Assembly: GCF_016841685.1 (NCBI RefSeq) | Contig: NZ_JAENYR010000010.1 | Span: 3,000 to 66,999, forward strand | Length of the DNA stretch: 64,000 nt | DNA from: Thiohalomonas denitrificans | GTDB taxonomy: Bacteria; Pseudomonadota; Gammaproteobacteria; Thiohalomonadales; Thiohalomonadaceae | Direction: 5' to 3' | Shown: positions 3,227-23,014 of the stretch, one piece after another | Layout: every line of letters starts with the position of its first letter | Numbering within the stretch: position 1 is the stretch's first letter | The notes under the pieces: generated by a model | Seen by the model: only the letters and a program-made list of their open reading frames with translations | Database searches by the model: none | What the model was told of the DNA's origin: nothing | Translations under genes and position numbers: made by a program

Positions 3227-3517
3227 GGGCAACCGCGTTTTGAAGCGAGTGATGCAAGTGCTTGATATCAGGTCGACGGAACACGACTGCATGGAAGCAG
3301 GAGGTAGAACAACGCACGCCGTCATGGAAGGCGGTGGTAGACAATGCATGGAGCATAGGGTCGGGTGACCCGTTGTCGAGAGATGCTGCCGTCGAGCCTA
3401 CAGGGATGAAGTGATGGCTCCTGCATCATCTTCACTTCCTACATCCCTGTAGGTCGTATCCACGGCAAGCCTGATATCCAGCAGTTGCATCCGCTCGCCA
3501 AGCACCAAGCTTGTGAG
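3227..3517 (+). repeat. Intergenic modular hairpin repeat, family A copy 1
   Basis: Ends GGGCAACCGC... and ...GCACCAAGCTTGTGAG; subterminal inverted repeats gcgagtgatgcaagtgcttgatatcagg / cctgatatccagcagttgcatccgctcgc; homologous segments recur at 18061, 31972, 36994, 53525 and 56359. Confidence 0.85.
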
Positions 3518-3561
3518 TATGTGTTCCCTACGGACTAAATGATTGGCGAAAGGAATCTTCC

Positions 3562-3885: not shown

Positions 3886-5715
3886 ATGGCAGGTATCGTG
3901 ATCAGTTACGACCCCAGCGGCCGTAACGGAGAAAATGTCCATACCGTTGCGGCAATGCTGCGTGGAATTGGTCGCCCTGATTGTGAGCCCGCTATTGCTA
4001 TCGAAGGCGAGGTGGTGTTGGCGTCCTGTGGCGGAAAATCGCCACTTTGGGATGCTTCACACAGCTGCTGTGTGCTGTTCGAGGGCGAACTGGTTGGTGA
4101 TGGCCACGATGCACCTGAACTCCGGATCCTGGAGCTCTACCGGGAACGGGGCGAGGGTTTTATAGAGGCCCTGAATGGCACTTTTGCCTCCGTCGTCTGG
4201 GACGCAAAATGCAAGCGACTGATGGTGGGCAATGACCGATTTGGACTCCATCCCCTCTACACGGCCATCGTGAATGGCCGTCATCTCTGGGCCTCTTCCC
4301 CCAAGGCGATGTTGGCCAACCCTGCATTCACGGTCCATCTCAACCCAGTCGGCTTGGCTGACTTTCTTGGGCTCAATCTGTTCCAGGCCGACGACACCCT
4401 GGTTCAGGGCGTGTCTGAAATCACCCCGGGAACCTTCGATGTCTGCGAGCCCCACGGTGTGCGAACGCTCCGCTATTGGGATTTCGTTCTTAGCGAAGAG
4501 GAGAATGGCCGATCCTCCCGGAGTTATGTGGAAGGCGCTGTTGACGTACTTCGAGCCAGTGCCGGCCGCAGGCAGGCGAACGAAGAAACCAGCGGTTTCC
4601 TGTTGAGCGGCGGGACCAGTTCCCGCGTGGCCCTCGGGGCACTTGATCGGGGTCGCCTGGTGGGATTGGCTTTCGGCGCCCCGAACAGTTCCGAGGCGGC
4701 CTTTGCCTGGCAGGTTGCGGAAACCGCCGGGATCCCCTTTCGTTTTCATGCCCTGGGGCCGGAGCGGCTAAAAACTGACGCTCCCGTGGGTATCGAACGC
4801 AGTCCGGAGCCGCTGAGCTGCATCCAGTTCGACGGGCTCGGTGCGTGGGGAACGGTCGATGCCGACTGCAAGGTTATCGTCACCGGGTGTGGTGGCGCCG
4901 CTGTGTTCGGGCAACCCGCCCGCCCGCGAGAGTGGGCAGGCGAGTTTACCGCCGAGCGCCATTTTGAGGCTTTGCGGGTTTTCAGCGATGAGGATTTGTC
5001 GCAACTGCTTCAGCCGGGATGGTACCGACAGATAGAGGGTGCAGCACTCCGTCGGTTTCGGGATGACCTCGCACGCTGCCCATCGCGCCACGGGATCCAC
5101 CGGCTGGACTACTGGGCGCTGCGCCAGTGGACCCGCCGCCTCGATAGCCGGTTGGCCCATCTCTTTCCTGAGGGGACACGGATACGACCCCTGTTTCTGG
5201 ACAACGAAGTGGTTGACTTTGCCCGTGCACTGCCCCCGTCGCTGCGCTGGGGCGAAAAATCCGTCTATCGACGCGCCCTGTTAAAGATCGCTCCCGAACT
5301 GGCCAGCCTGCCGGTGACGACCACAGGCGGTCTGCCGCTCTCCTACGGCCTGCGCAGGCTGCGATACCATCATCGCCTTGCTGCATGGGCCAAGAGATTC
5401 AGTCGTGCATCCGGAGGCATCCTGCTGCCTGCCAGCCGGCCTCTCAGTGCCGCACCCGATTATGCCTCCTGGTTGAGGCGGGATCTCCACGACTGGATGA
5501 CAAAACTGCTGCTGGAGCCACGGACACTCGACCGCGGTCTGTGGCGTCGGGAAGGGCTTCTCGCCCTGATTGCCGATTGTCTGAATGGCGGCGACCGGGC
5601 CCAACCTGCAGCCCGCAAGATCTTTACCCTGATCAGTCTCGAATTGTGGTGCCGCCGCTACTTTGATATCGCCGGAGAAGCGGTTCTGCCAAGCGACCAT
5701 TCCGCGGCCCGCTAG
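3886..5715 (+). CDS. Asparagine synthase-related (AsnB-like) protein with degenerate catalytic motifs
   Basis: Class II GATase-like N-domain (FEGEL, LNGTFA, NDRFGLHPLY) plus synthetase domain (LSGGTSS, PLFLDNEVV, LELWCRRY); starts MAGI rather than MCGI. Confidence 0.75.
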   Translation: MAGIVISYDPSGRNGENVHTVAAMLRGIGRPDCEPAIAIEGEVVLASCGGKSPLWDASHSCCVLFEGELVGDGHDAPELRILELYRERGEGFIEALNGTFASVVWDAKCKRLMVGNDRFGLHPLYTAIVNGRHLWASSPKAMLANPAFTVHLNPVGLADFLGLNLFQADDTLVQGVSEITPGTFDVCEPHGVRTLRYWDFVLSEEENGRSSRSYVEGAVDVLRASAGRRQANEETSGFLLSGGTSSRVALGALDRGRLVGLAFGAPNSSEAAFAWQVAETAGIPFRFHALGPERLKTDAPVGIERSPEPLSCIQFDGLGAWGTVDADCKVIVTGCGGAAVFGQPARPREWAGEFTAERHFEALRVFSDEDLSQLLQPGWYRQIEGAALRRFRDDLARCPSRHGIHRLDYWALRQWTRRLDSRLAHLFPEGTRIRPLFLDNEVVDFARALPPSLRWGEKSVYRRALLKIAPELASLPVTTTGGLPLSYGLRRLRYHHRLAAWAKRFSRASGGILLPASRPLSAAPDYASWLRRDLHDWMTKLLLEPRTLDRGLWRREGLLALIADCLNGGDRAQPAARKIFTLISLELWCRRYFDIAGEAVLPSDHSAAR

Positions 5716-5764
5716 CGGCTTTACTGCCCCTAGGCCATTAACCATTGTCCAATAATCGACAGTC

Positions 5765-6022
5765 TTAAGGCTTGTCCGGCAGGGTAACGTTCAGCTCCAG
5801 CACCTCATAGTCCCCCTCCTGCTCGAGGTGGACCTGGACTTGTTCCTGGTCGACGGGGATGTACTTGCGGATCACTTCCAATACCTCCCGCTGCATGGCC
5901 GGGAGAAACTCATAGCGACTGTTGCGTTCGCCCCGCTGATGGGCGATCACGACCTGCAGCCGCTCTTTGGCCAGCTTGGCACTGCTGGGTTTCGTTTCGC
6001 GAAAGTAGCTGATTAGACTCAT
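5765..6022 (-). CDS. minE: Cell division topological specificity factor MinE
   Basis: SAKLAKERLQVVIAHQR, LPAMQREVLEVIRKY and LELNVTLP motifs. Confidence 0.97.
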   Translation of the reverse strand: MSLISYFRETKPSSAKLAKERLQVVIAHQRGERNSRYEFLPAMQREVLEVIRKYIPVDQEQVQVHLEQEGDYEVLELNVTLPDKP

Positions 6023-6030
6023 TATTCACC

Positions 6031-6840
6031 TCACCCGAATAGCCGTTTCAACAGGCCCTTGGGTACCGCTTCAACGAAGCGAAGCGGCACCTGTTCACCG
6101 AGGAAACGGGCGACGACGTCGGAATAGGCCTGTCCCGCCGGGTCCTTTTCATCAAGGATCACCGGCTGACCGGCATTGGAGGCCTGTAGTACACTCTCCG
6201 ATTCGGGAATCACGCCCAGCAGTCCGATCCCGACCAACTCGACGATATCGTCCACGCTCAGCATGTCGCCGTCGGAAACCCGTGCCGGCGCATAGCGCGT
6301 GATCAAAAGATGCTCCTTGACCGGCTCATCCCCTTGCTCCGCCCGGCGTGATTTGCTCGCAATGATGCCGAGCATCCGATCGGAGTCACGTACCGAGGAG
6401 ACTTCCGGGTTGGTGACCACGACGGCCTCATCAGCATAGTACATGGCCATTTGGGCACCACTTTCGATGCCGGCCGGCGAGTCGCAGACGATGTACTCGA
6501 AATCGGCCGCCTTCAGTTCGTCGATGACCTGGCCGACGCCCTCACGGGTGAGGGCGTCTTTGTCCCGTGTCTGGGAGGCGGGCAGAATGTAGAGCCCCTC
6601 AACACGCCGATCCTTAATCAGTGTTTGATTGAGGTTGGCCTCGCCCTGGACCAGGTTGATGAAGTCGTATACCACGCGCCGTTCGCAACCCATGATCAGA
6701 TCCAGGTTGCGCAGGCCCACGTCGAAGTCGATCACGACCGTCTTGTGACCCCGCAGGGCCAAACCGGTAGCGAACGCGGCACTGGTGGTGGTTTTGCCTA
6801 CACCGCCCTTGCCGGAGGTCATAACGATTACTCTGTTCAA
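6031..6840 (-). CDS. minD: Septum site-determining ATPase MinD
   Basis: TSGKGGVGKTT, DFDVGLRNLD, DSPAGIE and C-terminal amphipathic GLLKRLFG; probable TTG start at 6840 gives 269 aa. Confidence 0.97.
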   Translation of the reverse strand: MNRVIVMTSGKGGVGKTTTSAAFATGLALRGHKTVVIDFDVGLRNLDLIMGCERRVVYDFINLVQGEANLNQTLIKDRRVEGLYILPASQTRDKDALTREGVGQVIDELKAADFEYIVCDSPAGIESGAQMAMYYADEAVVVTNPEVSSVRDSDRMLGIIASKSRRAEQGDEPVKEHLLITRYAPARVSDGDMLSVDDIVELVGIGLLGVIPESESVLQASNAGQPVILDEKDPAGQAYSDVVARFLGEQVPLRFVEAVPKGLLKRLFG

Positions 6841-6980
6841 TGCGCTCTCCCCGTGTTGCTCGCAATAGTGGTCAGTTAGGTCGGGCCTGTCGCCTGACAA
6901 GACGGCCGACACGAATGCTTCCCCGCTCCCCTGGGCCTCCCTTTGCTGGCGTCTACCTTTCGCTGGGCGTACAAGGCATC

Positions 6981-7661
6981 TTACACGGTCTCGATGCGCA
7001 ACTGCTCGCCATCAAGATGGATGTAGGCCGGCCCACCGCGTTGGCCGGCCTCCGGCTCCTCCAAGGTTCGGTAATGTCCTGCCACGGAGACCAGTTCGGC
7101 ATGAAGTACGGCGCAGGAGATGGTGGCCGTATCATCCCCCAGGATTCCCGCCAGCGCACGGCCCCGGAGCGGCGCGTGGACGTAGATAGAACCGCCCGCC
7201 AACACCTCCGCGCCGGCACTGACCGGAGCCAGCAGAATCAGATCGCCGAGGGTATGGATCTGCTGTCCCGAGCGGACCGGCTGGCTGACGACGCGCACCG
7301 GAGTGCGGTCGGATTCCGGTTTGGGAGCCTCTTCAACCGCCCTTTCTCGCTGCCCGCCCAATAGTTTCCAGCCGGCAGTCTGTGCCGCCTCTGCCTGCGT
7401 CGGCCCGGCATTGCTGATTCCGGCCGGGATGATACCGGCTTCGCGCAGCGCGGCATCCAGCGCCACGAAGTCGGGCAGCGCCTCTGTCTCCTGCAGGGGT
7501 GCCAGATCCAGCGCCACCAGCGCTCCCTGAAACATGCCCGGGGCCTGGGTGACGGTCTCTTCCAAAGCCCGGCGGAAGCTTTCGACATCGGTGTCGCACA
7601 GCAGCAGTCGCTGCATCAGCTGCATGCCGGCGCGGAGCTCAAAGGGGCGGGGTTCACTCAT
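6981..7661 (-). CDS. minC: Septum site-determining protein MinC
   Basis: PVRSGQQI, VSAGAEVLAGGSIYVHAPLRGRALAG and AELVSVAG motifs; upstream of minDE. Confidence 0.93.
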   Translation of the reverse strand: MSEPRPFELRAGMQLMQRLLLCDTDVESFRRALEETVTQAPGMFQGALVALDLAPLQETEALPDFVALDAALREAGIIPAGISNAGPTQAEAAQTAGWKLLGGQRERAVEEAPKPESDRTPVRVVSQPVRSGQQIHTLGDLILLAPVSAGAEVLAGGSIYVHAPLRGRALAGILGDDTATISCAVLHAELVSVAGHYRTLEEPEAGQRGGPAYIHLDGEQLRIETV

Positions 7662-8097
7662 AGTTCGCTAATGTCGCTTCGAAACCAATCCGACCATTAT
7701 ACCGGCCCGAGATACCCATGTGGGAACAGCGATTGTATCGCAATCGACGGAGGGCACCATGCAGAATAGCCACAATCGGAGTACCGATTGCTCATGGGAA
7801 AGAGGGGGGCGAGCTGAAGAGAAACCGGAAGGACGGGACACGTGACGCCTCTGGTTTCCGGGGTCAGAGGATACCGTACGATCTCGCCAACCTGATTTAG
7901 CCGGATATCAGCAAGAGCCGTGTAAGCGATAGGGAAGTGATCACCATAACATACCCGGGCGTTTATCCCCTGAATAATGAGAGGCGTGCGGCATGTCTCG
8001 AACGTCGTCAGGCAAGCTATCTTCCGCCTGTGCTAGCTGGAAGTCCCCTGCTGCGATTTGTATGGAAAACAGTCACATAACAGAAGAACCCGACTAG

Positions 8098-8297
8098 GAG
8101 CTTGTCCGAGAATAGCGACCGTCACGAGGGCAAGACGGATTGAGTGGGATTTTTCGGTCATTGGAGACGAATACGACTGCATGGACGCAGTCGTTAGAGC
8201 GACGCATGCCGCCATGGATGGCGGTAGTAGAGAGTGTCTGGAACCTATTCTCGATGATGCCCGAGCCGAGTAGGTCAGCCTATTCTCGGACAGGCTC
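8098..8297. mobile_element. 200-bp MITE with IS5-like ends and CTAG target duplication
   Basis: 18-bp terminal inverted repeats GAGCTTGTCCGAGAATAG / CTATTCTCGGACAGGCTC (17/18 match), flanked by CTAG at 8094-8097 and 8298-8301; no transposase. Confidence 0.75.
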
Positions 8298-8338
8298 CTA
8301 GAGAGGTTTGCCTGTGCTAAAAGCGATCAAAAATTCCT

Positions 8339-8363
8339 GGAACTTTTATGTCTGTAGTGCGTT
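8339..8363 (+). promoter_or_regulatory. Putative autoregulatory ECF-sigma promoter (GGAAC-N16-CGTT)
   Basis: GGAAC at 8339-8343, 16-nt spacer, CGTT at 8360-8363, immediately ahead of the ECF gene; same motif at 10267. Confidence 0.6.
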
Positions 8364-9008
8364 ATGACAATAAATGATTACGGAGTACGGCTAAAGGTGT
8401 CTGTTTTATCGATCGCCCCGATCCTGAGCGGCCTGGGCAGGTCCAAACGGAGGGATTTTCGCGAACTTCGGGACGAAGAGTGCGCCGAAAGGTCGGGGGC
8501 CGGGGATAACGACGCTTTCGCCGAACTCGTGCGACGCTATCAGAACCGCGTCTTTCGTTACCTGAAACGGATGGTTGGTTCCGAGGAGGAGGCCCGTGAC
8601 CTTACCCAGGAGACCTTTTTGCGAGTCTACAAAGCGCTGCCGAAATGGAATGAACAGGCCCTGTTCCGATCCTGGTTGTTTCGAATCGCGAGCAATGCTG
8701 CGATCGATGAATTACGCCGCCGCCAGGACCATCGGCCGCTGTCACTCAATGGCCTCGACGAACCGGTGTCACAACAACCGACCGTTGAACACATCCACTA
8801 CGCTGAAGAACGCTATCTGTTTCTTGAGAAAGCACTCATCCGAATATCAGAGATTTACCGCCAGCCCCTGCTTTTGCGAGAGCTTGAGGGGATGACCTAC
8901 TCGGAGATAGGCAAGTTGTTGGATTTGACCGAAGGTACTGTAAAATCTCGCATTGCCCGCGCACGTGCGAAGCTGTGTGAACTATTCCGAAACTGCGGAT
9001 ATTGTTGA
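8364..9008 (+). CDS. ECF-family RNA polymerase sigma-70 factor
   Basis: Region 2 (GDNDAFAELVRRYQ, DLTQETFLRVY, FRSWLFRIASN) and region 4.2 (TYSEIGKLLDLTEGTVKSRIARAR); true start may be downstream, e.g. GTG 8397. Confidence 0.93.
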   Translation: MTINDYGVRLKVSVLSIAPILSGLGRSKRRDFRELRDEECAERSGAGDNDAFAELVRRYQNRVFRYLKRMVGSEEEARDLTQETFLRVYKALPKWNEQALFRSWLFRIASNAAIDELRRRQDHRPLSLNGLDEPVSQQPTVEHIHYAEERYLFLEKALIRISEIYRQPLLLRELEGMTYSEIGKLLDLTEGTVKSRIARARAKLCELFRNCGYC

Positions 9009-9011
9009 AAG

Positions 9012-9455
9012 ATGGATTTTTGCCCAAAAATAGAGATGCTTTCCGCATACGTCGACGGGGAGCTATCTTCAGCCGCAATGTTCGCGTTGGATGAACACGT
9101 GGCCAACTGCGCCCGCTGTCGGGAGACGGTTTCCGCGATCCACCTGCTTGGTTCGGCAGTTAACGAGGATGGCGCGCCGCCGGTGGATTTGGTACCGGAA
9201 ATCATGGAACGGATTAAATGCGAGCGAGATGTTGTTGAAGTGATGGGGATGGGCTGGCGTCGATGGAGCCCGATTTCCTTGTCTGCGGCAGCCGGGATCA
9301 TGCTGGCGATTGGGGTACTACTCGGCCATGGTGTTTTTTACCATTCGGCATCTTCGACCGATCCACTAGTTGGCAGAATGTGGGCCTTTGATCTGATTCC
9401 GCCTGGCGGAGTGTGCATTCACAACAACGCTTGCTTCGGGGTGCGCGCCAAATGA
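9012..9455 (+). CDS. Zinc-binding anti-sigma factor (zf-HC2) with one TM helix
   Basis: LSAYVDGEL...HVANCARC (HxxxCxxC), hydrophobic segment SLSAAAGIMLAIGVLLG; 3 bp after the sigma stop. Confidence 0.88.
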   Translation: MDFCPKIEMLSAYVDGELSSAAMFALDEHVANCARCRETVSAIHLLGSAVNEDGAPPVDLVPEIMERIKCERDVVEVMGMGWRRWSPISLSAAAGIMLAIGVLLGHGVFYHSASSTDPLVGRMWAFDLIPPGGVCIHNNACFGVRAK

Positions 9456-9934
9456 AACGATATTGCCTGCCAACTCTGCTGATCCTTTCGCTGGCCTTGA
9501 ATGCTGGTGTTCTGGGCATGGGTGGTATCTATCTGGCCGAAAGCTGGCTCGGTCCCAAGCCGGCCCAGGGGCACACCATGCTTGTTCACTATCTTGAGTT
9601 GGACGGAGAGCAGCGCCTGATCTGGCAGGAGAAGGAAAAAGGCTTTATGGACGACCTGACCAGTGCTTGGCAACAGATCCATGGTCATCGCGAAAAAATG
9701 ATACGTGAGATATTTTCCGATTCGCCGGATCAGGAGTTGATCGAAATCCAGCGCGCGGCCATATCTCAAGTCCAGGAGCAGCAGCAAAACTACGTGATTG
9801 CGCAGATGATGGCCGAGAGGGAAATACTCGATGCGCAGCAGCGTCAGAAATTGGCTGATCTTCTGATTCAGCAAAACCCGATAGGTTCCCTCGAAGAAGT
9901 CCTCGCCGACGAGCTCCATCACCCCGACCACTGA
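9452..9934 (+). CDS. Periplasmic Spy/CpxP/CnrX-like helical sensor (heavy-metal sensor family)
   Basis: N-terminal anchor LLILSLALNAGVLG, repeated LDxxQR helices, His-rich tail DELHHPDH; ATGA overlap with the anti-sigma. Confidence 0.75.
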   Translation: MKRYCLPTLLILSLALNAGVLGMGGIYLAESWLGPKPAQGHTMLVHYLELDGEQRLIWQEKEKGFMDDLTSAWQQIHGHREKMIREIFSDSPDQELIEIQRAAISQVQEQQQNYVIAQMMAEREILDAQQRQKLADLLIQQNPIGSLEEVLADELHHPDH

Positions 9935-10172
9935 ACCGGTGCGGTAGGGTGCCGGCCCGGCCGCATCCTTGTACTGTGTTGAATCGAAGCCCCGGACCGT
10001 GACCGTTTGGTAAGTAATATTGATACTGGGCTTCTATTGGCTCGCGTTGAAAAACTCTATCGTCTGCGAATTTCGAATTAAAAACTCCCTCATCTTTTAA
10101 AGCTGGCAAGAAATGGCGGAACTCGGTTCTTGCCTTCGCGTTAAAACTCTTTTTTATGTTTTTATCATTTTA

Positions 10173-10188
10173 TTATATTGAAATATAA
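10173..10188. promoter_or_regulatory. Palindromic operator candidate TTATATT-N2-AATATAA (copy 1)
   Basis: TTATATTGAAATATAA; same arms at 34096-34111. Confidence 0.5.
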
Positions 10189-10266
10189 CTAATTAATCTT
10201 TTTATTTTATGATACTTCCGGGTAGTATTCTATTAGCTGGACAATCACGATTTTTATGAAATAAAA

Positions 10267-10291
10267 GGAACCTTCGCCCTGCATGCTCGTT
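10267..10291 (+). promoter_or_regulatory. Putative ECF-dependent promoter of the porin-cyt c'-sox cluster (GGAAC-N16-CGTT)
   Basis: GGAAC at 10267-10271, 16-nt spacer, CGTT at 10288-10291; about 100 bp upstream of the porin ATG. Confidence 0.6.
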
Positions 10292-10392
10292 TATCATAAA
10301 GATTGCGACATTTATCTAGCGTCTGATAATGACCGAGCACGCGTTTTGTGATTAACACAAGACGTGATTATTGCAAAAGGGGGGGAGGACGG

Positions 10393-11835
10393 ATGTGGAA
10401 TAAAAGTGTGCTCGCTTTGGCGGGTGGAGTGCTGTCCATGTTTTCAGTAAACGCCCATGCGGCGAACTGGATAATGATACAGGGAACTGAGCCACCAAAT
10501 TCTGAACCACGCTTCTTTGGTGCGGCTGCGTTGACCTATTCAAATTACCTGGGGTGTGATCGATTGTCCGGTATGGCCGCGCCGGACGGTACCGCGGATG
10601 GGAACCTGAACGCGGGTCCCGGGCTGAATAACGGCTACTACGTAAACAACTGTCGTGTCGGTCCGGAGCTCGAAAACAGGAATAGCGGGGTCAATTTGAA
10701 TGCCCTCGTTTTGGGATCTCGGGGACCGATCACGGATAAAACCAATTACTTTATTACTACCCAGTTCGGTTCCAATGCGGCGACCTACTTACCGATGAAT
10801 ACCGATCGTGAAAGAATCGGGACTCTTACCGATGCCAGTGTTACGTTTAACCACATCCCACGGGCTCGGCTGAAAGCGGGGCTTTTCAAGAAGCCCGGGC
10901 CGGAAGAGCTTATGCAGTCGCTCAAGAATCACAATTTCATCTACTTGACCGACTTCACGAGACGCGATCAGATCGAGCGCTTCGTCACCGGTAACGCTAA
11001 GGGCACACGACCGATTCCGGATCAGGGGACGCCTGTTACTGAAGCCTACGATGCCGACGTCGGGCGGGACTGGGGCGTTCAGCTTTTTGATGCATTCCGT
11101 ATTGCCGACTGGCAGCACACGTATGCGGTAATGGCCGGAAACGGCAATGGAATTCATCATGACGATAACAATAGTGAAAAGGATTTGAATCTATACTGGT
11201 CATCGGAAAAGGACCTTCCTGGCGGTAAAGGGCCGTATAGGCATGGAGTCAAGTTCTATGGCTATCATCAAAAAGGCATACGCAACTTCATCAAGGACGA
11301 CGGAACTTACAGCGAAAATTTTGATCGCATCAGGTACGGCGTGGGTATGAAAGCGTTGGGAAAGCTCGGCGGATACAAGCAGAGATTCGCGGTTGATCTG
11401 ATGTATGCGGACGGCATGGTACTACAATCCGCCGTGACTAGTTGCACTGACTGTCCGTACGGTGGCCAGATACAGATTGCGGCGGAAGAGGGCAACAAGG
11501 CGCGTGGGACCACGATCGATTACGGGTTCTACCTGAATAAGAAGTGGCAGTTCGACGCACGCTGGTCACGTAATAATCTGCTTTATGAGACTGCGGATAA
11601 CACGAAATGGAGTCCCTCGGATGAACGCGTCATTACCGAGTTTGCCATCGGTACCAATTATCACATCAGCCCCAAGACGCGTGTGACCCTGAACTATGTG
11701 TTTCGGGATTCGGAGGCACCCAATGCCGTGCAACATCCCGACCCGAACATAGCTGCGGTGAAGACTCAGAACGCCGAGAACGCCACATCGACGGTCGGTG
11801 ATGTGCTTGGGCTCCGGATAATGCACTTCTTTTGA
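10393..11835 (+). CDS. Outer-membrane beta-barrel / porin (OprO/P-like, uncharacterised)
   Basis: Signal peptide ending AHA, alternating beta-strand pattern, many Tyr/Phe/Trp/Asn, terminal Phe (MHFF); GGAGG RBS before ATG 10393. Confidence 0.7.
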   Translation: MWNKSVLALAGGVLSMFSVNAHAANWIMIQGTEPPNSEPRFFGAAALTYSNYLGCDRLSGMAAPDGTADGNLNAGPGLNNGYYVNNCRVGPELENRNSGVNLNALVLGSRGPITDKTNYFITTQFGSNAATYLPMNTDRERIGTLTDASVTFNHIPRARLKAGLFKKPGPEELMQSLKNHNFIYLTDFTRRDQIERFVTGNAKGTRPIPDQGTPVTEAYDADVGRDWGVQLFDAFRIADWQHTYAVMAGNGNGIHHDDNNSEKDLNLYWSSEKDLPGGKGPYRHGVKFYGYHQKGIRNFIKDDGTYSENFDRIRYGVGMKALGKLGGYKQRFAVDLMYADGMVLQSAVTSCTDCPYGGQIQIAAEEGNKARGTTIDYGFYLNKKWQFDARWSRNNLLYETADNTKWSPSDERVITEFAIGTNYHISPKTRVTLNYVFRDSEAPNAVQHPDPNIAAVKTQNAENATSTVGDVLGLRIMHFF

Positions 11836-11901
11836 TAGATAACCATGGAGGGACAGTTCGGATGTCTTCTCCGACAGCAGGTGGTTTTAGATTCCCGGTA
11901 C

Positions 11902-12058
11902 GTAACTGCTCGCCCGGTTGATCATGCGGGGCATAGGAGATTCGTCATCCCCGCGCAGGCGAACCGTCATCCCCGCGCAGGCGGGGATCCATTTTGAGCC
12001 ATGCCGCTGCTCTCTGGATTCCCGCCTCCGCGGGAATGACGGGGGAGTGAGCAGTTAC
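11902..12058 (+). mobile_element. 157-bp MITE family B copy 1, carrying a nested REP-like palindrome
   Basis: TIR GTAACTGCTC/GAGCAGTTAC; perfect 8-bp flanking direct repeat CCCGGTAC (11894-11901, 12059-12066); 155/157 identical to 40373-40529. Confidence 0.85.
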
Positions 12059-12203
12059 CCCGGTACAAATAAATGGAAGAGGTGCATCAAGCGATCGCAC
12101 TGCACGATAGGTCACCGGGCGCTCACAAAACAGTAGCCAGGGAGCGTCCGGTTTCGGAGGGATTGTAATTGCTTTCAAATGATGAAAAGAGAAGAGGTAT
12201 GAA

Positions 12204-12695
12204 ATGCGTATAAACGGAAAACTGGTCGGGATTTGTTTGATGGGTGCGGTCGGGGTTGGCGCCATTACGGCCTGGGCAGCCGGTGGAGAGCCAGTACCGA
12301 ATCAACTAAAAGACCCCGACCAGAGGATCGTTCTGCAATTGCCGCCGGATGAGCGTCATATGGTGCTGGAGGAGATGCGGAACTTTGTCGTGGCGATCCA
12401 GGAAATTGCCGATGGATTGGCCCGTGATGATTTCGAACAGGTGGCGACGGCGGCGCGCACCATGGGAAGTGGTGCTGCCAACGAGATACCTCCTCGCGTT
12501 GTGAACAAACTTCCGGAAACGTTCAAGCAGCTCGCTGGCAAGGTTCATACTACTTACGATGCGATCGCGTTGGATGCGGGAAGCATGGCCGATACCCAGT
12601 TGGCGCTGGAACAGCTTGGGGACTTATACGGATATTGTGTGGCGTGCCACGCCACCTATCAGATCGAAAAAATCCCGTTTCCTGATGAAAAATAA
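12204..12695 (+). CDS. Periplasmic class II (c'-type) cytochrome c
   Basis: Signal peptide, all-helical body, single C-terminal CVACH heme motif. Confidence 0.8.
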   Translation: MRINGKLVGICLMGAVGVGAITAWAAGGEPVPNQLKDPDQRIVLQLPPDERHMVLEEMRNFVVAIQEIADGLARDDFEQVATAARTMGSGAANEIPPRVVNKLPETFKQLAGKVHTTYDAIALDAGSMADTQLALEQLGDLYGYCVACHATYQIEKIPFPDEK

Positions 12696-12760
12696 CAAAC
12701 ACCGGAGATGGGCCAGGAATCGGCAGAACTGGTTACTAGCATCATGACAGGAGCAAAAAT

Positions 12761-13237
12761 ATGACGATGAACATAAAGCGCAGGACCTTGCTCAAGGGTT
12801 CTTTTGCGGGCGCTACGATGGCGATTGCCGCTGGTGCTGGATTGTTGAAGCCAAGCCGGGTATTGGCGGTTTGGCCGGAAAAAGTCTTCAAGGCAGAGAA
12901 TGTGGAGGGTTTTCTGCAGGACATCTATGGCAATACCAGCCTTCAGGCTAGTGAAGACATTCAAATCCAGGTGCCGGAGATTGCAGAAAACGGCGCTGTT
13001 GTGCCGGTGACAGTCACTACCGGTATAGCGAATGTACAGAGCATTGGACTTGCGGTCGTCAACAACACGAACCCGCTCGCGGCGGTATTTCATATGTCCG
13101 ACAACGCAGACGGTTATGTGTCCACGCGCCTGAAAATGGCCGGAACTTCTGATGTGCTGGCAACGGTGAAGGTGGGAAATGAAACCTTCTTTGCCCGCAA
13201 GGAGGTCAAGGTCACGATCGGTGGTTGTGGCGGCTGA
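12761..13237 (+). CDS. soxY: Thiosulfate oxidation carrier protein SoxY (copy 1)
   Basis: Tat signal RRTLLK, AENGAVVPV, C-terminal KVTIGGCGG. Confidence 0.97.
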   Translation: MTMNIKRRTLLKGSFAGATMAIAAGAGLLKPSRVLAVWPEKVFKAENVEGFLQDIYGNTSLQASEDIQIQVPEIAENGAVVPVTVTTGIANVQSIGLAVVNNTNPLAAVFHMSDNADGYVSTRLKMAGTSDVLATVKVGNETFFARKEVKVTIGGCGG

Positions 13238-13278
13238 ACGATCAGCCAATCAGAACGCAAGAACAGGAGTAAACAGAA

Positions 13279-13593
13279 ATGGCTGGCAGCATCATGATTC
13301 GAGCCAATAAGAAAGGCGAGCTGACTACGGTCAAGGCCTTGATCAAGCACCCGATGGAGACAGGCCTGCGCAAGGACAAGAAGAGCGGGAAGAAAATCCC
13401 GGCCCACTTTATCCAGGAAGTCAGTTGCAAGCATGCCGGTAAAGAGGTGATGAGTGCACAATGGGGCGCCTCCGTATCGAAGAATCCGTACTTCACCTTT
13501 CGTTTCCGCGGCGCAGATAAGGGCGATCGCGTAACGCTGACCTGGGTTGATAACCAGGGCGGCAGCGAGTCCAAGGAAACCGAGGTCGCCTGA
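13279..13593 (+). CDS. soxZ: Thiosulfate oxidation carrier complex protein SoxZ (copy 1)
   Basis: HPMETGLRKD, PAHFIQ, VSKNPY and WVDNQG motifs. Confidence 0.97.
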   Translation: MAGSIMIRANKKGELTTVKALIKHPMETGLRKDKKSGKKIPAHFIQEVSCKHAGKEVMSAQWGASVSKNPYFTFRFRGADKGDRVTLTWVDNQGGSESKETEVA

Positions 13594-13761
13594 TCGTGAG
13601 TCACTGCGCGGGCCGGGGCAGGCCTGCGCAGTTCACCTTGCCTGCAAGTCACGTTTCCGGGCAGGGCGCGGGTGCTGATCCTTTCTGTCAGTGCAAGCCG
13701 AAGTCTCAGGTCTTTGGTTGACGCGTCGCCCTATCGGCAGGGACTGAGTTTTTTTTCTTGC

Positions 13762-13893
13762 GAGCCGTACCCCCTGCTGCGCAGGCTCGAATCAGTGAAG
13801 AGCTGTAACCACGGGGTACACGGGGACCACGGGGTAAAACAGGTTGTTCGAGTTTTTTCTCCCCGTGCGCCCCGTGTTCCCTGTGGTTCGAAA
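13762..13893. repeat. Composite intergenic repeat (gattcg-gcctgcgcagcagggg module plus ACCACGGGG inverted repeat)
   Basis: Module is the reverse complement of 45452-45486; ACCACGGGGTACACGGGG...CCCCGTGTTCCCTGTGGT inverted pair also seen at 45517-45716. Confidence 0.65.
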
Positions 13894-13984
13894 TTCAAGG
13901 GGTGAATCGCGAAATTATTCACGAGGAATGCAGTCATTCTTGACTCTTCGATAATAGCCATAAAAAACCAGGAGGATGGGGGAT

Positions 13985-14452
13985 ATGTCAATCAGACGCG
14001 TTGTGAGTTTTTTGTTGCCTGTGTGCGTCATGCTGACGGTCAGTGCACAGGTGACGGCGGAACAGAAGGAGAAGGTGGCAAAGCCTTCGGAGTTCCCATG
14101 TTTGAGTTACACGGCACCTTGCGGAAAAATCGGTGTGCGGCCGGTCGTGAAAAAGATGCCGCAAGACCTCTCTTTGGGTGATCCGGAAAGGGGGAAACAA
14201 ATCGCCTTCAAACGGAAAAAGGGCAACTGCCTGGCGTGTCACCGAATGAATGGCGGGTCGCAGTCAGGCACGCGAGGTCCCGATTTGAGCCGCTACGGCT
14301 CGTCGGGCCGAACTGCTGCCGAAATATACGCAATGGTATATGACAACCGCTGGCAGTTTCCGGACACCGTTATGCCGCCATTTGGAACGAATGAGGTCCT
14401 GACCGATCGCGAAATCCGTGATGTTGCTGCTTTCCTGCGGGCATCGCGTTAA
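13985..14452 (+). CDS. soxX: SoxX c-type cytochrome (copy 1)
   Basis: GDPERGK...KGNCLACH...GPDL...MPPFG motifs; extra N-terminal Cys pair CLSYTAPC; start chosen by spacing from GGAGG. Confidence 0.92.
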   Translation: MSIRRVVSFLLPVCVMLTVSAQVTAEQKEKVAKPSEFPCLSYTAPCGKIGVRPVVKKMPQDLSLGDPERGKQIAFKRKKGNCLACHRMNGGSQSGTRGPDLSRYGSSGRTAAEIYAMVYDNRWQFPDTVMPPFGTNEVLTDREIRDVAAFLRASR

Positions 14453-14459
14453 GAGGTGC

Positions 14460-15356
14460 ATGATGAAACCGAAAGCCATGTTCGTTGCACTCGCTGGTAT
14501 CTTTGCTGCCTCCGCCTGGGCCGTTGAAACCGAGGATAGGTATCCGCGTACTCCAATCGTCCCGGAGCAGGGAGTTTGGGGAGATCAGGGGTTCTCCAAT
14601 ACGATTCAATATTGGGGTAGCAAAGAGGCCTTGAATAAAAATGCTTCTCTGCAAGATGACCCGGACAATGTCTGGAAACTGAACCATAAACACAAGGATG
14701 GTGATCGGGTCGATATGCACCCGGGGCACATCGGGGTGGAAGAGGGTCGCGAAATGGTGGACTCGTGGAGCAGCAAGAAACCGGAGTTTCTCAAGTGTTT
14801 GTCGGAGGGTAAAGGATCACTGCAAGGACTTGCTGCAAACTATCCGAAATATGATGAGAAGCTCGATCGGATAATGACGGTCGAGGCCCGCATCGAACAC
14901 TGCTCGCAGACCCATTTGCCGAAGCAGATCAAACAGGGCTCGCCAGCCAATACCACTAGCGCCCTCTACGTGAAATCGCTAAGCGCAGGTAAACCGATTC
15001 AGGTTGACCTTTCGTCGGCTCCTGTAGAGCAGGCGTACCAGCGTGGCGAAAAGCTCTTTTACAAACGTATTGGTCAGCTCAATTTCGCCTGTGCATCCTG
15101 CCATACTCCGGGAAGTGTGATGGGACACAAGTTGCGCGGCGAAGTCCCTACGACCCCATTCGGTGATGTGGCGCACTATCCGACCTATCGGACGCCAGTA
15201 GGGGAGTTGGAGCCGTTGCACCTGCGCTTTGTGCGTTGCCACAAACAGATGCGCGCAAAGCCGCTGCCGCCGGGCGATCCGGCTTATACGGACCTCGAAG
15301 TGTTCTTGTCCGTCTTGTCGAATGATTACCCGATTTCGGTTCCTTCATTGCGGTGA
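14460..15356 (+). CDS. soxA: SoxA monoheme c-type cytochrome (copy 1)
   Basis: RIGQLNFACASCH, HYPTYR, RFVRCHKQMRA (axial Cys); first heme site reduced to a Cys pair (FLKCL/IEHCS). Confidence 0.93.
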   Translation: MMKPKAMFVALAGIFAASAWAVETEDRYPRTPIVPEQGVWGDQGFSNTIQYWGSKEALNKNASLQDDPDNVWKLNHKHKDGDRVDMHPGHIGVEEGREMVDSWSSKKPEFLKCLSEGKGSLQGLAANYPKYDEKLDRIMTVEARIEHCSQTHLPKQIKQGSPANTTSALYVKSLSAGKPIQVDLSSAPVEQAYQRGEKLFYKRIGQLNFACASCHTPGSVMGHKLRGEVPTTPFGDVAHYPTYRTPVGELEPLHLRFVRCHKQMRAKPLPPGDPAYTDLEVFLSVLSNDYPISVPSLR

Positions 15357-15731
15357 AAGAGCTTCCATCCTGAAGTATTTAGGTGAGGCAGGGAAGCTTC
15401 CCGTTTTTGAATGCAGCGGCCGCCGGATGGGCTTCACGTTGTGTCACAATGCGCAAGCCGGCGGTCCGAATGCCGGTGTGCCGCCGTTTTTTCGCCCTAC
15501 TGCCCTATTAGTAGCCAGTGACTGCCGCCGTATTCCCAGCGGCCCGAACTGGAAATCCGCATATTCCTCTGCACCACCATCCGCGCCTGCGCTTCCCGAG
15601 GTTTTCCGGCGAGGAGCGTGGCCCAGTTCTGTAGGCTTTCTTCGGATTGCCGTGGCAAGGCCGGTACCGGTAGGATTAGCAGCCGGCGTTCCGGCGCTCT
15701 CTTTCACTGACAACCAACCGCGGGTTTGCGC

Positions 15732-17987: not shown

Positions 17988-18060
17988 AAGGGTGGCCTTG
18001 ATCGGCTTTGGGTCGACCGGCACACAGGACACCCTGGGGGTAGGCAGGGTAAATGCATCG

Positions 18061-18210
18061 TCACAAGCTTGGTGCATGGCGAGCGATGCAAGTGCTTGAC
18101 ATATCAGGTACGCCGTGAATACATCCCTGTAGGCTCGACGGCAGCATCCCTGCTGCCGACGACCTGATATCAAGCGCTTGCTTCACTCGCTTGAAAGTAT
18201 GGGGTTGCAC
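18061..18210 (-). repeat. Family A repeat copy 2 (internally deleted), downstream of parC
   Basis: tcacaagcttggtgc...catccctgtaggctcgacggcagcatccc...cctgatatcaagcgcttgcttcactcgc matches the reverse complement of 3227-3517. Confidence 0.8.
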
Positions 18211-18678: not shown

Positions 18679-20778
18679 TCAAGTGGCCCGGCGCCGTTGA
18701 ATCGCCAGACCGGGCAGCAGCGCGAAAACGAGCCATAGCATAGTACCTCCGCCGCCCCCGGAAGGCGGATCGAAGCGGATGCTCAGGGTATAAGGCATAT
18801 CGACGGGAGTCTGGCCGACCCGGTTCGTGGGAGTGAACAGAATGACACTGGCATGGTAGAGCCCCGGTGCAGGTGCGGCGATGGTGATTTTCTCGTCACT
18901 CGTGTTTCCCACGCTTCTCAGAGTCTCCTCGTCCATGCAATTGGGCGGCAGGGGCGTGTACCAGTAGCAGAACTGCGGCGCAGGACGGGCGCCATAGCGC
19001 ACCAGGAGGTCGATTTCCGCACCGGAGGCCGTGCTGGCGGTGGTGACCTTCAGGTTTTTTGCTCCATCCGGCACTTCGAAGTGAAAGGTGTGCACCCGGT
19101 CCCAAGGGTTTGACTCCCGGATCCGTTCATCGAGGGTCAGCTCACCCGCCGCGGGTTTGAGGGCACCGAACTCGAGTGCGAAACGGCGGGTCACTCCGTA
19201 ATCGCCGGCAGAAATCAAAAGCTCCAGCGGCAGGTGCTGATGGGCAGTTGCATCATTGGCCATACGAACGGTGAAGGCCAGCTCGGCCCCTGTCCCTTGC
19301 GCGAGTGTGGAAGCCAGAGTGTTGCTGTCCTCGACGACCGTCAGGTCCGGAGCGAGGCTGTGGAGAACACCGGTAACCCCGGCGGCATCGCGCCACTGAT
19401 TGGCAATTACAACCCGCAGCGTAGCGTTCTCCCCCGGGTCCAGTTGGCTATTGCCGTTGCCGGCAGCATCGTCGATGCGCCAGGAAGAGATCACCAGCAC
19501 GGGTTGGGGGAGAACCGTCATCGCCCCGTAGGCGTTCACCCGCCCGTCGGTGGCCAGCCTCCCGTCCGTGATGCGCTCCACCCCCGCCATAAGCCGACCT
19601 TTCATCTCCCGGTAGTCCAGCGGGATTTCACCCTCCGACTCGCGGTAGGCCTTGACCAGAGCCGCCACGGCGGCGGTGTAGGGGGCGGAAAACGAGGTTC
19701 CTTCCGCAAACTGGTAAGTAGCCACCGGATCGCCCTGTTCGTCCCTGGCCCAGCTCGTGGTGTAGATGCTGGAGCCCGGCGCGGCGAGGTCAACGCTTCG
19801 TGGCCCGATTTGGGTGAACACGGAGAGGCCGTCCTGGGGATGACTGGATGCCACTGAAAGAACATTAGGCAGGTCATAACCCGACGGGGCGTTGGGAATG
19901 TCGTCATTGCTGTAGCCGCCGTTGCCGGCGGCGGCGAGGAACAGGATCCCCTCTTTTTGCAGTTGCTCAATGGCATCGAACTCTGCCTGGGAATAGGCAC
20001 CGCCATAGCTGGCGTTGATGATATGAGCGCCGTTGTCCGCCGCGTATTGATAGGCAGCGATTAGTTGAGCCACGCTGTAATTGGTACGCAGTGGCATAAT
20101 TTGCACCCGTTGTGCCGGGCTGGTGATACCGGTGCCGTTACCGCCCCTAGCCCCGGCGGCACCGGCTACCAGGGTGCCGTGCACTTCATCGGGACCGGCG
20201 GTCGGATCTCCATCATCGGCGACAAAATCCCATCCCGGGATGATGTTTTCCTCCAGGTCTTCATGGTTGAGCAGGATGCCGTCGTCGATAACAGCAATGA
20301 CGACGGCGTCCGCATGGGTTTGCAGATCCCACGCCCGCGGCAGGTCCATATCGGCTCCCGGCAAGCCGTCGGTAGGGTCGGTACTCCCCGAAGACAATGA
20401 ATTCCCGGCGTTGAGAAGCCCCCACTGCCTGGCGTCCAGGTCATTGGGAAACACCTCATGCGGCCGGTGTATGAAATTGGGCTCAGCGTATTCGATCGGT
20501 TTCGAGGCCCTTAGCCGGCGGACGGCTGCGCTCACGTCAGCCTTGGCGGGGAGCGTCCACTTTTCGATGCCGAAGCGCTGGAAGGTGCGGGCCCGCTGTC
20601 CACTGACCTGCGCCATGGTCAAGCCTCGGGCGCGCACATCGGTTCCCGTCTTGAACTTGATCAGCAGCTCGCCGGGACGGTAATGGGGCGGTTGTTCGGC
20701 CTTCGACGGGGCCCCGGAGGCCATGCTGACGGAGAGGGCAAACAACAGACCGGCGGCAAGGGTGAGAAGGGTCGTCAT
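18679..20778 (-). CDS. Subtilase (S8) serine protease with prodomain, PPC-like domain and GlyGly-CTERM tail
   Basis: Catalytic triad IAVIDDG / HGTLVAG / GTSFSAP; C-terminal SGGGGGTMLWLVFALLPGLAIQRRRAT. Confidence 0.92.
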   Translation of the reverse strand: MTTLLTLAAGLLFALSVSMASGAPSKAEQPPHYRPGELLIKFKTGTDVRARGLTMAQVSGQRARTFQRFGIEKWTLPAKADVSAAVRRLRASKPIEYAEPNFIHRPHEVFPNDLDARQWGLLNAGNSLSSGSTDPTDGLPGADMDLPRAWDLQTHADAVVIAVIDDGILLNHEDLEENIIPGWDFVADDGDPTAGPDEVHGTLVAGAAGARGGNGTGITSPAQRVQIMPLRTNYSVAQLIAAYQYAADNGAHIINASYGGAYSQAEFDAIEQLQKEGILFLAAAGNGGYSNDDIPNAPSGYDLPNVLSVASSHPQDGLSVFTQIGPRSVDLAAPGSSIYTTSWARDEQGDPVATYQFAEGTSFSAPYTAAVAALVKAYRESEGEIPLDYREMKGRLMAGVERITDGRLATDGRVNAYGAMTVLPQPVLVISSWRIDDAAGNGNSQLDPGENATLRVVIANQWRDAAGVTGVLHSLAPDLTVVEDSNTLASTLAQGTGAELAFTVRMANDATAHQHLPLELLISAGDYGVTRRFALEFGALKPAAGELTLDERIRESNPWDRVHTFHFEVPDGAKNLKVTTASTASGAEIDLLVRYGARPAPQFCYWYTPLPPNCMDEETLRSVGNTSDEKITIAAPAPGLYHASVILFTPTNRVGQTPVDMPYTLSIRFDPPSGGGGGTMLWLVFALLPGLAIQRRRAT

Positions 20779-21640: not shown

Positions 21641-23014
21641 TCAGTCGCTATAGAGTCCCAGGGACTTGAGTTGCGTCGATCCGTTGAGGAATTTCTCCGC
21701 CAGGATGAGAGAGGTGGCCGACCAGGTCTGAAAGTAATTGGAGCGACGTCCGACCAGTCGCCCATGGCGTCCGTCGTAATACTCCGCCCAGAGGTCGACA
21801 GGGAGCCGCTCGGCTGCCTGAGCGTAGGCCCTTTCCGCCAGATCGGGACGCCCCGCTTTCACCGCCGCCCCGACAAACGTCCACAGAAGCGCAGGCCAGT
21901 TTCCACCATTATGATAGGACCACGGTGCGTTTTTGGGATCACTCCCGGTCATCAGGCGCCACTCTTCGCCATCCATGGCCGGATAACTGATCTTGACCGG
22001 CATGGTGCCGACTAAATCGGCCCAGCGCTCCTCATAGAGGAACATGATACGTTGCGCTTCCTCGTCGGTTGAGAGGCCAAACAGAATGGATAACAGGTTA
22101 CCCAGCGCGAAAAATCGGAAATCCATCCGTCCGGGTCCGAGATTGCCCACCAGATAACCCGCACTTTCCGGAAGCCAGTCGGGGACCCAGTCGGGGATGC
22201 TCTCCGGGTGAATGTTCAGGATGTTGACGCTGTCCTGTCCGAACTGTTCGGTCTTGTAGCGGTGGATTTCGTTGAGACGGGGGACGTCCAGCCAGTAGTA
22301 GATGCGGATGTAAGTTCGCAGTGTCCGAAGTCGCTGGTCCACACGCCGCACCAGCCCCTCGTTTCCATCAGCGGTTTCCAGGAGTTGGCGTGCGGCGCAG
22401 AGTGCACCGAAAAAGAGGGCCTGAACCTCCAGCGGATGGCCGTAAACCCCCATGCGGCGGTCGATCATGAAGGAGCCGTCCGGGACCAGGAGGGTAGGGG
22501 CAACCTCCAGGCGATCCCTGAGCAGAAGATCGAGGATCTGGCGCATTCCCCGCTGCACATCCGGCTGGTGAGCGAAATCGGTGTCACCGCTGACCGTCAC
22601 ATAGGTCCTGAGCAGAATCATCCACCACAGCATCGAATCCACTGGCGCCACCCGGCCGATGGCATGGTCCCCGAAGTCGGCAATCAACCGTTCGCCCTGG
22701 TTATCGTTGACGACCTTGAAACTGGCGGGCATGACCCCGGGTGCGGGTTCATGCCCGGCCCAGCGCTCCTGTTGATGGCGAAGCTCGAGCACCGTCTGTA
22801 AAAAGTCATGGACGACTGTGTCGCGGCCATCCAGTAGGTAGACGAGTGCAGACGGCACGAAATCGCGTACGAAGCAATCGGCATAGTGCTCTGCCGGTGC
22901 ATTGGGGTCCCGGGCTGCCATGGTACCGATAACGCGGCCACGATAGCGCATCTCGGATGCTTCGAGGACTGCATAGGCTGCGTCGATGGGGGAGAGGTGG
23001 GGTATCGTAGCCAT
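21641..23014 (-). CDS. Alkaline/neutral invertase (GH100)
   Basis: FVRDFVPSA, ADFGDHAIGRVAPVDSMLWW, MIDRRMGVYGHPLEVQ, GRMDFRFF, YHNGGNWP and AEYYDG motifs; start at ATG 23014. Confidence 0.93.
   Translation of the reverse strand: MATIPHLSPIDAAYAVLEASEMRYRGRVIGTMAARDPNAPAEHYADCFVRDFVPSALVYLLDGRDTVVHDFLQTVLELRHQQERWAGHEPAPGVMPASFKVVNDNQGERLIADFGDHAIGRVAPVDSMLWWMILLRTYVTVSGDTDFAHQPDVQRGMRQILDLLLRDRLEVAPTLLVPDGSFMIDRRMGVYGHPLEVQALFFGALCAARQLLETADGNEGLVRRVDQRLRTLRTYIRIYYWLDVPRLNEIHRYKTEQFGQDSVNILNIHPESIPDWVPDWLPESAGYLVGNLGPGRMDFRFFALGNLLSILFGLSTDEEAQRIMFLYEERWADLVGTMPVKISYPAMDGEEWRLMTGSDPKNAPWSYHNGGNWPALLWTFVGAAVKAGRPDLAERAYAQAAERLPVDLWAEYYDGRHGRLVGRRSNYFQTWSATSLILAEKFLNGSTQLKSLGLYSD

Follow-up and report, generated by a model that had tools for sequence, protein, structure and literature searches.

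A conserved porin-equipped Sox sub-module with a predicted dedicated ECF sigma switch in Thiohalomonas denitrificans and other sulfur-oxidising bacteria

A 64,000-nucleotide stretch of the gammaproteobacterium Thiohalomonas denitrificans (contig NZ_JAENYR010000010.1 of assembly GCF_016841685.1, positions 3,000 to 66,999; hereafter the window) carries nine genes that place a regulatory trio, consisting of a sigma factor of the extracytoplasmic function (ECF) type, a zinc-finger anti-sigma factor and a membrane-anchored periplasmic protein, next to an outer-membrane porin, a small c-type cytochrome and the sulfur-oxidation proteins SoxY, SoxZ, SoxX and SoxA. We consider it likely that this locus is a self-regulated porin-plus-Sox sub-system that is switched by its own ECF sigma factor. 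This reading is carried by a promoter motif that recurs ahead of the sigma and porin genes in orthologous loci, and by the conservation of the porin, Sox and cytochrome genes as a module.

The nine open reading frames named in the original prediction are all present, all on the plus strand, at the coordinates it gave. Their products were identified by Pfam and NCBIfam profile searches and pass the family models, the porin and the cytochrome being treated separately below, and the four Sox proteins were judged against NCBIfam equivalog cutoffs (Table 1). For SoxA and SoxX there are matches in the PDB to SoxAX of known structure (1H31, 2C1D and 3OA8), and SoxY has a Tat-type (twin-arginine translocation) signal, RRTLL, and the C-terminus VTIGGCGG. 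Three of the starts first proposed probably lie further downstream: the open reading frames of the periplasmic protein, the porin (495 residues) and SoxA run from 9413, 10348 and 14418, respectively, and the probable ATG of the first overlaps the stop codon of the anti-sigma gene. The sigma start, which could fall anywhere from 8364 to about 8397, is uncertain because the predicted promoter ends at 8363; a GTG at about 8397 is probably the true one. A scan of all open reading frames of at least 500 residues found no SoxB or SoxCD in the 64-kb window, and the second Sox set that had been reported is indeed there, as soxX-Y-Z-A on the minus strand at 27965-30125, 12.6 kb from the module. Because the unit has no SoxB, the module would need SoxB from elsewhere.

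A search of both strands of the window gives three matches to the motif GGAAC-N16-CGTT, all of them within this locus and in the correct orientation (Table 1). In nine orthologous loci from genomes that carry the ECF trio (155.6 kb), there were 18 strict matches: each locus has exactly one ahead of the sigma gene and exactly one ahead of that for the porin, always in the correct orientation, even where the trio is divergent as in Sedimenticola. As a control, 23 loci in which the same module is accompanied by a two-component system (377 kb) contained three matches, none of them near the porin gene, and the remaining loci (629 kb) contained one, so that the background is about 0.004 per kb. The pair of sigma and porin motifs is also found in seven further sox-linked metagenome loci, and the consensus of the promoter is GGAAC[T/A]TT-N13-[T/C]CGTT. 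An autoregulated ECF promoter that is repeated ahead of a neighbouring operon is the standard mark of a direct ECF target. Since this signature is present, we regard control of the porin operon by the ECF sigma factor as well supported in silico.

Table 1 Features of the locus.
Feature	Coordinates	Strand	Basis
MITE-like (miniature inverted-repeat transposable element) small dispersed repeat, just upstream of the sigma promoter	8080..8315		inverted arms 8080-8115, 8280-8315 (36 nt)
Predicted ECF-type promoter of the sigma operon (autoregulation)	8339..8363	+	GGAAC-N16-CGTT
ECF sigma factor, regions 2 and 4 only	8364..9008	+	Sigma70_r2, Sigma70_r4_2, TIGR02937
Zinc-finger anti-sigma factor	9012..9455	+	zf-HC2
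Membrane-anchored periplasmic CnrX/NccX/CpxP-family protein (probable start)	9455..9934	+	PF13801 Metal_resist, E 3e-19
Distal GGAAC-N16-CGTT motif	10118..10142	+	motif search
Proximal GGAAC-N16-CGTT, predicted ECF-dependent promoter of the porin-sox unit	10267..10291	+	126 nt before porin ATG
Outer-membrane beta-barrel porin, OprP/OprO-like (probable start)	10393..11835	+	structure model; faint PF07396 in homologues
161-nt MITE-like dispersed repeat, in the 369-bp porin-cytochrome gap	11899..12059		98% identical copy 40370-40530
Periplasmic monohaem c-type cytochrome (class II / c-prime-like)	12204..12695	+	C-terminal CVACH, weak PF01322
SoxY carrier	12761..13237	+	TIGR04488, 151.6 bits vs cutoff 125
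SoxZ	13279..13593	+	TIGR04490, 143.4 bits vs cutoff 76
Repeat-bearing part of the 383-bp soxZ-soxX gap	13770..13890		repeat scan
SoxX, monohaem (CLACH)	13976..14452	+	TIGR04485, 84.3 bits vs cutoff 61
SoxA, monohaem (CASCH), module-specific lineage (probable start, approximate)	14460..15356	+	TIGR04484, 171.5 bits vs cutoff 110
Two terminator-like hairpins after soxA	15385..15486	+	terminator scan

To examine conservation, 78 species-level genome loci around porin homologues were fetched and the nine window proteins were mapped onto them. Porin homologues are common in Gamma- and Betaproteobacteria. The complete string porin-soxX-soxA-soxY-soxZ-cytochrome is present in 27 loci, and about eight more are cut off by contig ends (about 35 gamma- and betaproteobacterial species in all). 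One of these loci, L001, has intergenic gaps of only 9-28 nt within the module, followed downstream by genes for TusA and a YeeE-type sulfur transporter; among the loci whose genes were annotated, no SoxB-like gene directly follows the module. The SoxY terminus VTIGGCGG is found in 28 of 28 module proteins, and the single haem sites (CxxCH) of module SoxA and SoxX are conserved. The SoxXA proteins of the modules share about 57% identity with one another, compared to 29-35% with the second SoxXA of the window, and by this comparison module SoxXA is a separate lineage. The cytochrome is the last module gene in other genomes, and its CxxCH site is kept in all but one of 28 sequences, the exception being cut off by a contig end.

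Co-occurrence of the trio and sox genes in other genomes, on which the original prediction had made its proposal depend, is clear. The trio adjoins the porin-sox module in nine other species-level genomes (L001, L004, L005, L006, L008, L010, L011, L014 and L022), which include the cultured Sedimenticola selenatireducens and in which the trio is divergent in the two Sedimenticola loci, L004 and L005. It also does so on eight metagenome contigs (L084, L086, L089-L092 and L107, plus L118, the closest relative). In about 23 betaproteobacterial loci (L003, L018, L020 and about 20 others) a divergently encoded pair, a histidine kinase with its response regulator, takes the place of the trio; the best match of this pair is EnvZ/OmpR and next CpxA. 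These loci usually encode a Tll0287-like protein (PF11845) and have a second c-prime-like cytochrome gene ahead of the porin, in the same orientation. Because the same output is found with two types of regulator, it is the output module that is conserved, while the regulator facing the periplasm has been exchanged. We had considered a heavy-metal two-component system for the betaproteobacterial pair, and this idea was dropped because the pair is EnvZ/OmpR- and CpxA-like, not CusS/CzcS-like, and it lent no weight to a metal cue. An Acidithiobacillus-type sox cluster with the sigma-54 system TspSR was also discarded, as the genes of the window have their nearest relatives in Sedimenticola-like Gammaproteobacteria and a sigma-54 system is absent.

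Extra Sox sets of this kind have been listed before. Candidatus Desulfobacillus denitrificans, the source of one of our loci (L032), has soxXAYZ in addition to a canonical soxYZAXB cluster (PMC8402940), which indicates that the module is an extra set in this organism, with its SoxB encoded elsewhere. Genomes of Sedimenticola symbionts of lucinids, which may likewise carry the module, have a canonical soxABXYZ operon together with additional soxYZ copies (PMC11237559). Neither paper mentions a porin or regulators.

We next consider the proteins that set this module apart from other Sox clusters. A faint match to PF07396 (Porin_O_P) is found in some homologues of the window porin, and the porin profile, when searched by sequence in the PDB, had no real matches. 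An AlphaFold model built from a 21-sequence alignment is a large beta-barrel (predicted local distance difference test score, pLDDT, 74; predicted template modelling score, pTM, 0.79). When this model was compared to the PDB with Foldseek, the best matches were OprP (2O4V) and OprO (4RJW), with E of about 1e-11, followed by general trimeric porins. Many arginine and lysine residues are invariant across the homologues. On the strength of this model we take the 495-residue protein to be an outer-membrane porin. The label of cytochrome c' in the original prediction held in part: the protein is a cytochrome of the c type whose only haem site is C-terminal, and the c-prime assignment comes from a match to PF01322 at 24.2 bits, which is below the cutoff of 26.5. 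The cytochrome profile matched small cytochromes c, b562 and c-prime in the PDB at E of 0.05-0.5.

More distant relatives of the porin (30-44% identity; L083, 6105-9086, and L038-L080) are without sox neighbours. They often adjoin another, divergent ECF sigma gene, and L083 also has an AhpC/redoxin gene. Being under ECF control may be typical of this family of porins as a whole.

The trio itself has the anatomy of a trans-envelope switch. The anti-sigma factor carries an N-terminal zinc finger (C...H-x3-C-x2-C), crosses the membrane once by a helix and ends in a periplasmic tail of only some 35 residues, in which M-A-x-F-D-P-[IV]-P-P-G-G-[ILV]-C-x4-5-C-[YF] is conserved. The profile of the third protein aligns over its full length with the nickel/cobalt sensors NccX (4CLV, E 1.2e-3) and CnrX (3ZG1, E 0.035), and many of the sensors in the trios end in His-x-His tails. 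By analogy with CnrYXH, the periplasmic protein and the anti-sigma tail could perceive the signal together. The order of the genes, with a zinc-finger anti-sigma factor at position +1 and a PF13801 protein at +2 relative to the sigma gene, and the autoregulatory promoter equal the layout described for the group ECF281 (PMC7826278), and the window trio can be called ECF281-type by this likeness of layout, as distinct from a match to a group profile. ECF281 has been tied to heavy-metal stress by genomic context alone, and none of its members is characterised (Casas-Pastor et al. 2021, PMC7826278).

Several observations weigh against a single ECF-switched porin-Sox unit. The promoter motif was first noticed by eye in the window and was therefore tested on the orthologues, which provide an independent test. 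The window porin itself has no Pfam match at E 0.01 or better, PF07396 included, and its model reaches template modelling scores (TM-scores) of only 0.47-0.55 to OprP and OprO; a single-sequence model of the cytochrome has four long helices at a poor pLDDT of 46. The module was silent in an anammox-reactor metatranscriptome, the only such study that lists it (PMC8402940). The arrangement in the window, porin-cytochrome-Y-Z-X-A, departs from the porin-X-A-Y-Z-cytochrome order of nearly all loci, and L118 has no soxXA at the site, with a 365-residue second outer-membrane-like protein in its place. The ECF motif is absent from the two internal gaps of the window, upstream of the cytochrome and soxX genes, when up to one mismatch and spacers of 15-17 are allowed. 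As these long gaps bear repeats and have no ECF motif, soxYZ and soxXA could have promoters of their own. The remaining points on this side concern the cue: the sensor's Pfam family, PF13801, takes its name from metal resistance, and in sister clades of the trio the second promoter drives other genes, as described below.

The features of the window arrangement could be due to adjacency without common control in this genome, with the sigma factor driving only itself and the porin, and the cytochrome, soxYZ and soxXA genes using their own promoters after a rearrangement. Indeed, the genes are loosely spaced here (gaps of about 460, 369 and 383 bp, which contain promoters and dispersed repeats), and the order porin-cytochrome-soxYZ is found only in the window and in L118, whose porin is 76% identical and where another gene stands in for soxXA. 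Window SoxZ is also nearer to the window's own SoxZ2 (64% identity) than to module SoxZ proteins (at most 52%), which suggests replacement or conversion during rearrangement. We nevertheless find this explanation unlikely. A scan of the internal gaps found no plus-strand terminator-like site and no sigma-70-like promoter, and the cytochrome (65-72%) and SoxXA (53-62% identity) are clear orthologues of the module genes. In about 14 other complete ECF loci the sox genes are packed directly after the porin gene. The organism behind the window comes from a landfill metagenome, and a look for RNA-seq of Sedimenticola found none. Short Logan contigs from sediment metatranscriptomes match parts of the genes for sigma, anti-sigma and porin and of soxY, soxX and soxA with full identity, and one of them covers the end of soxZ and continues for 215 nt into the gap; such contigs show transcripts or DNA, and operon structure is not resolvable from them. 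In the window it is thus predicted to be likely that soxYZ and soxXA are transcribed together with the porin gene, although this is less secure than in the orthologues.

The comparison with L118 also bears on the motif at 10118. The L118 locus (5501-13008) has three ECF motifs, before the sigma gene, before the porin gene and before an extra c-prime-like cytochrome gene that sits between the trio and the porin. Because this extra cytochrome gene has a motif of its own, the distal motif in the window is probably a relic, the orphaned promoter of a cytochrome gene that has been lost there.

Dispersed repeats occur at three places of the locus: the repeat in the soxZ-soxX gap is another than that in the porin-cytochrome gap, and the one upstream of the sigma promoter belongs to a third family. 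The 161-nt repeat in the porin-cytochrome gap has internal palindromes and an inverted partial copy at 33903-33994, and its translation is what we take to be the familiar spurious reading frame 'PAQAGIH...RLRGNDG'. The family of short repeats with a copy upstream of the sigma promoter is intergenic, at 3239-3521, 8080-8315, 18056-18196, 32008-32062, 37027-37232 and 56391-56474; copies akin to that at 8080-8315 include 3239-3521 and 32028-32062. An Rfam scan of the window returned a single tRNA, with no match within the locus.

The locus (8000-15400) has a GC content of 0.50-0.56, compared to 0.61-0.62 in its flanks, and lies between minCDE and parC, with parE at 1196-3172. With its lower GC and its position splitting a housekeeping neighbourhood, it resembles an acquired island. 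We take the unit to be, most probably, a horizontally mobile, self-regulated Sox sub-system. The low-GC island, the repeat insertions, the missing SoxB and the silence in the anammox reactor could also point to a decaying duplicate, that is, a redundant second Sox set without a distinct role. We think this very improbable, as all the open reading frames are intact, the catalytic motifs are all conserved across 28 genomes, SoxXA is an old separate lineage and not a recent duplicate, and the set comes with a dedicated regulator and a conserved promoter.

What the trio responds to is less clear. A regulator-seeded metagenome scan revealed sister clades of the trio that share its tail motif and its layout of two promoters. 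In these, the second promoter drives His-rich DUF6448 or other His-rich periplasmic proteins and not sox genes. This speaks against a cue specific to sulfur and weakens the view that the family evolved for sensing sulfur compounds; the signal therefore need not be one. Five of the loci (L096, L101, L103, L109 and L111) have one or two DUF6448 genes behind the second promoter of the trio; the encoded proteins are periplasmic, with an HCDGLDGPV motif and His-rich C-terminal tails, and a hemerythrin-like protein is encoded next in L109. A predicted regulator is thereby assigned to the uncharacterised DUF6448 family.

These sister trios raise the alternative that the trio is an ordinary ECF281-type metal or envelope-stress system, which has captured the porin and Sox genes as an output for protection and not for energy gain, for example in handling periplasmic sulfane, persulfide or thiosulfate-metal chemistry. 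Besides the sister trios, the PF13801 match and full-length similarity to NccX and CnrX, the reported link of ECF281 to heavy-metal stress and the His-x-His tails would agree with such a role, as would a trio in L106 that adjoins HupE/UreJ and DUF3240 genes and the distant porin homologues that lie beside other ECF sigma genes and an AhpC/redoxin gene. However, the residues that we take to be the nickel/cobalt ligands of CnrX (His42, His46, Glu63, His119 and Met123) are not conserved in the sensor alignment, which has no invariant His or Met ligand. Moreover, the output comprises the whole catalytic Sox set, which is conserved and has a cytochrome to itself, elsewhere it stands under an EnvZ/OmpR-like system outside the heavy-metal kinase family, and sulfur-trafficking genes for TusA and YeeE follow the module in L001. 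Taken together, we judge a protective metal or stress system to be improbable, and as a best guess at the cue we favour a sulfur species over a metal by a small margin. Going further, we suggest only tentatively, as a possible but doubtful specific version, that the sensor and the cysteine pair of the anti-sigma tail sense a periplasmic sulfur species such as thiosulfate, polysulfide or a protein persulfide, that the porin is specific for a sulfur oxyanion, and that the module serves as a high-affinity scavenging branch of Sox. If this is true, the trio would be the first dedicated ECF pathway for an inorganic sulfur substrate, and the porin would be the first outer-membrane channel specific to a sulfur oxyanion, with a parallel in the Pho-regulated OprP for phosphate.

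The original prediction, in which a periplasmic cue switches on a channel, carrier, oxidase and electron sink, agrees with the anatomy of the proposed ECF-switched porin-Sox unit, and its functional side may be pictured as follows. The CnrX/CpxP-family protein and the anti-sigma factor with its cysteine-bearing tail would keep the ECF sigma factor inactive until a periplasmic cue, with a reactive or reduced sulfur species as best guess and a metal ion as the main alternative, frees it. The sigma factor would then read the two GGAAC-N16-CGTT promoters, that of its own operon, giving positive feedback, and that of the porin gene. The porin transcript is predicted to encode an OprP/OprO-like anion channel, the monohaem cytochrome, SoxYZ and the distinct SoxXA. 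The channel could pass a sulfur oxyanion, most likely thiosulfate, over the outer membrane; SoxXA would couple the substrate oxidatively to the SoxY cysteine, and the two electrons would go to the small cytochrome. SoxB from a canonical cluster elsewhere in the genome would complete the cycle by releasing sulfate. Without SoxCD, the sulfane sulfur could be directed to S0 or to cytoplasmic oxidation, for which the window has a rhodanese-TusA-DsrE set at 32-34 kb. In this scheme we infer the substrate, the cue, the direction of electron flow and the co-transcription of the rearranged genes; beyond the promoters and gene identities, the other steps would follow established Sox biochemistry.

Other genes in the window were noted in passing. 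The second soxXYZA (minus strand) lies in a region, 27965-35631, beside a gene for a BepA-like M48/TPR (tetratricopeptide repeat) peptidase, followed by genes for the rhodanese, TusA, a DsrE-like protein and a FadL/TodX-type outer-membrane channel, the latter being a second outer-membrane protein beside sulfur-trafficking genes in the window. The product of the gene at 18679-20778 (minus strand) is an S8 subtilase that has both a prodomain and a PPC domain; its C-terminus consists of GGGGG followed by a hydrophobic helix and RRR, a tail that resembles the GlyGly-CTERM (rhombosortase) sorting signal. At 21641-23053 (minus strand) there is an alkaline/neutral invertase of family GH100 (E 2e-195). 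GH100 invertases are mostly known from cyanobacteria and plants, and one is unusual in a sulfur-oxidising gammaproteobacterium.

Periplasmic substrate sensing in sulfur oxidisers and the passage of thiosulfate across the outer membrane are both poorly understood. The locus described here is compact, conserved and genetically testable, with a carrier, S. selenatireducens, in culture, and its trans-envelope switch has a target promoter that can be read from sequence. It would supply the first physiological output for ECF281-type trios, and it illustrates the swapping of regulators, as the module goes with an ECF trio in some genomes and elsewhere with a two-component system. In terms of annotation, the module accounts for the 'extra soxXAYZ' clusters in genome papers.

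Among known systems, the closest structural matches of the window porin are OprP and OprO of Pseudomonas aeruginosa, which are specific for phosphate and diphosphate, respectively. The window porin has only about 12% identity to them and is 70-80 residues longer, and OprP belongs to the Pho regulon whereas the window porin lies in a sulfur operon. The trio is similar to CnrYXH and NccYXH of Cupriavidus metallidurans, which are likewise three-part trans-envelope switches with an ECF sigma factor, a small membrane anti-sigma factor whose periplasmic tail is short, and a helical sensor of equal length that is anchored in the membrane and to which the third protein of the trio is probably related. 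In contrast to CnrYXH, the window anti-sigma factor is of the zinc-finger type and not CnrY-type, the gene order is different, the nickel/cobalt ligands are not kept, and the output is a porin and Sox genes instead of an efflux pump. For ECF281, the layout is the same, and the group description mentions no sulfur, Sox or porin beside it (PMC7826278).

With the canonical Sox systems of Paracoccus pantotrophus and Allochromatium vinosum the module shares the GGCGG arm of SoxY, SoxZ, and monohaem SoxA and SoxX. It differs from them in that the unit is without SoxB and SoxCD, its SoxXA is a separate lineage, and it has its own porin and class-II-like cytochrome. Known regulators of sox genes include the ArsR-type SoxR and sHdrR, the sigma-54 system TspSR, SulRS, CsoR, and a LuxR-type regulator with a histidine kinase. 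The module is instead found with an ECF trio or an EnvZ/OmpR-like system, in place of SoxR, TspSR or the LuxR-type regulator just named. The original prediction held that ECF control of sox genes was undescribed, which is too strong: in Arcobacter butzleri, ECF sigma factors were shown experimentally to alter sox transcription and sulfur oxidation activity (PMC3445524). The sigma factors in question are unlinked and act globally, with effects on nap, dct and tct genes as well, and part of their effect may be indirect (PMC3445524); the A. butzleri sox genes have no dedicated trio, porin or shared promoter beside them. In the literature we found no description of a porin within a sox operon, nor of the trio together with sox genes. 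What is new is thus the linked, dedicated trio with its conserved target promoter, and with it a conserved, porin-equipped Sox sub-module under a predicted ECF281-type switch of its own.

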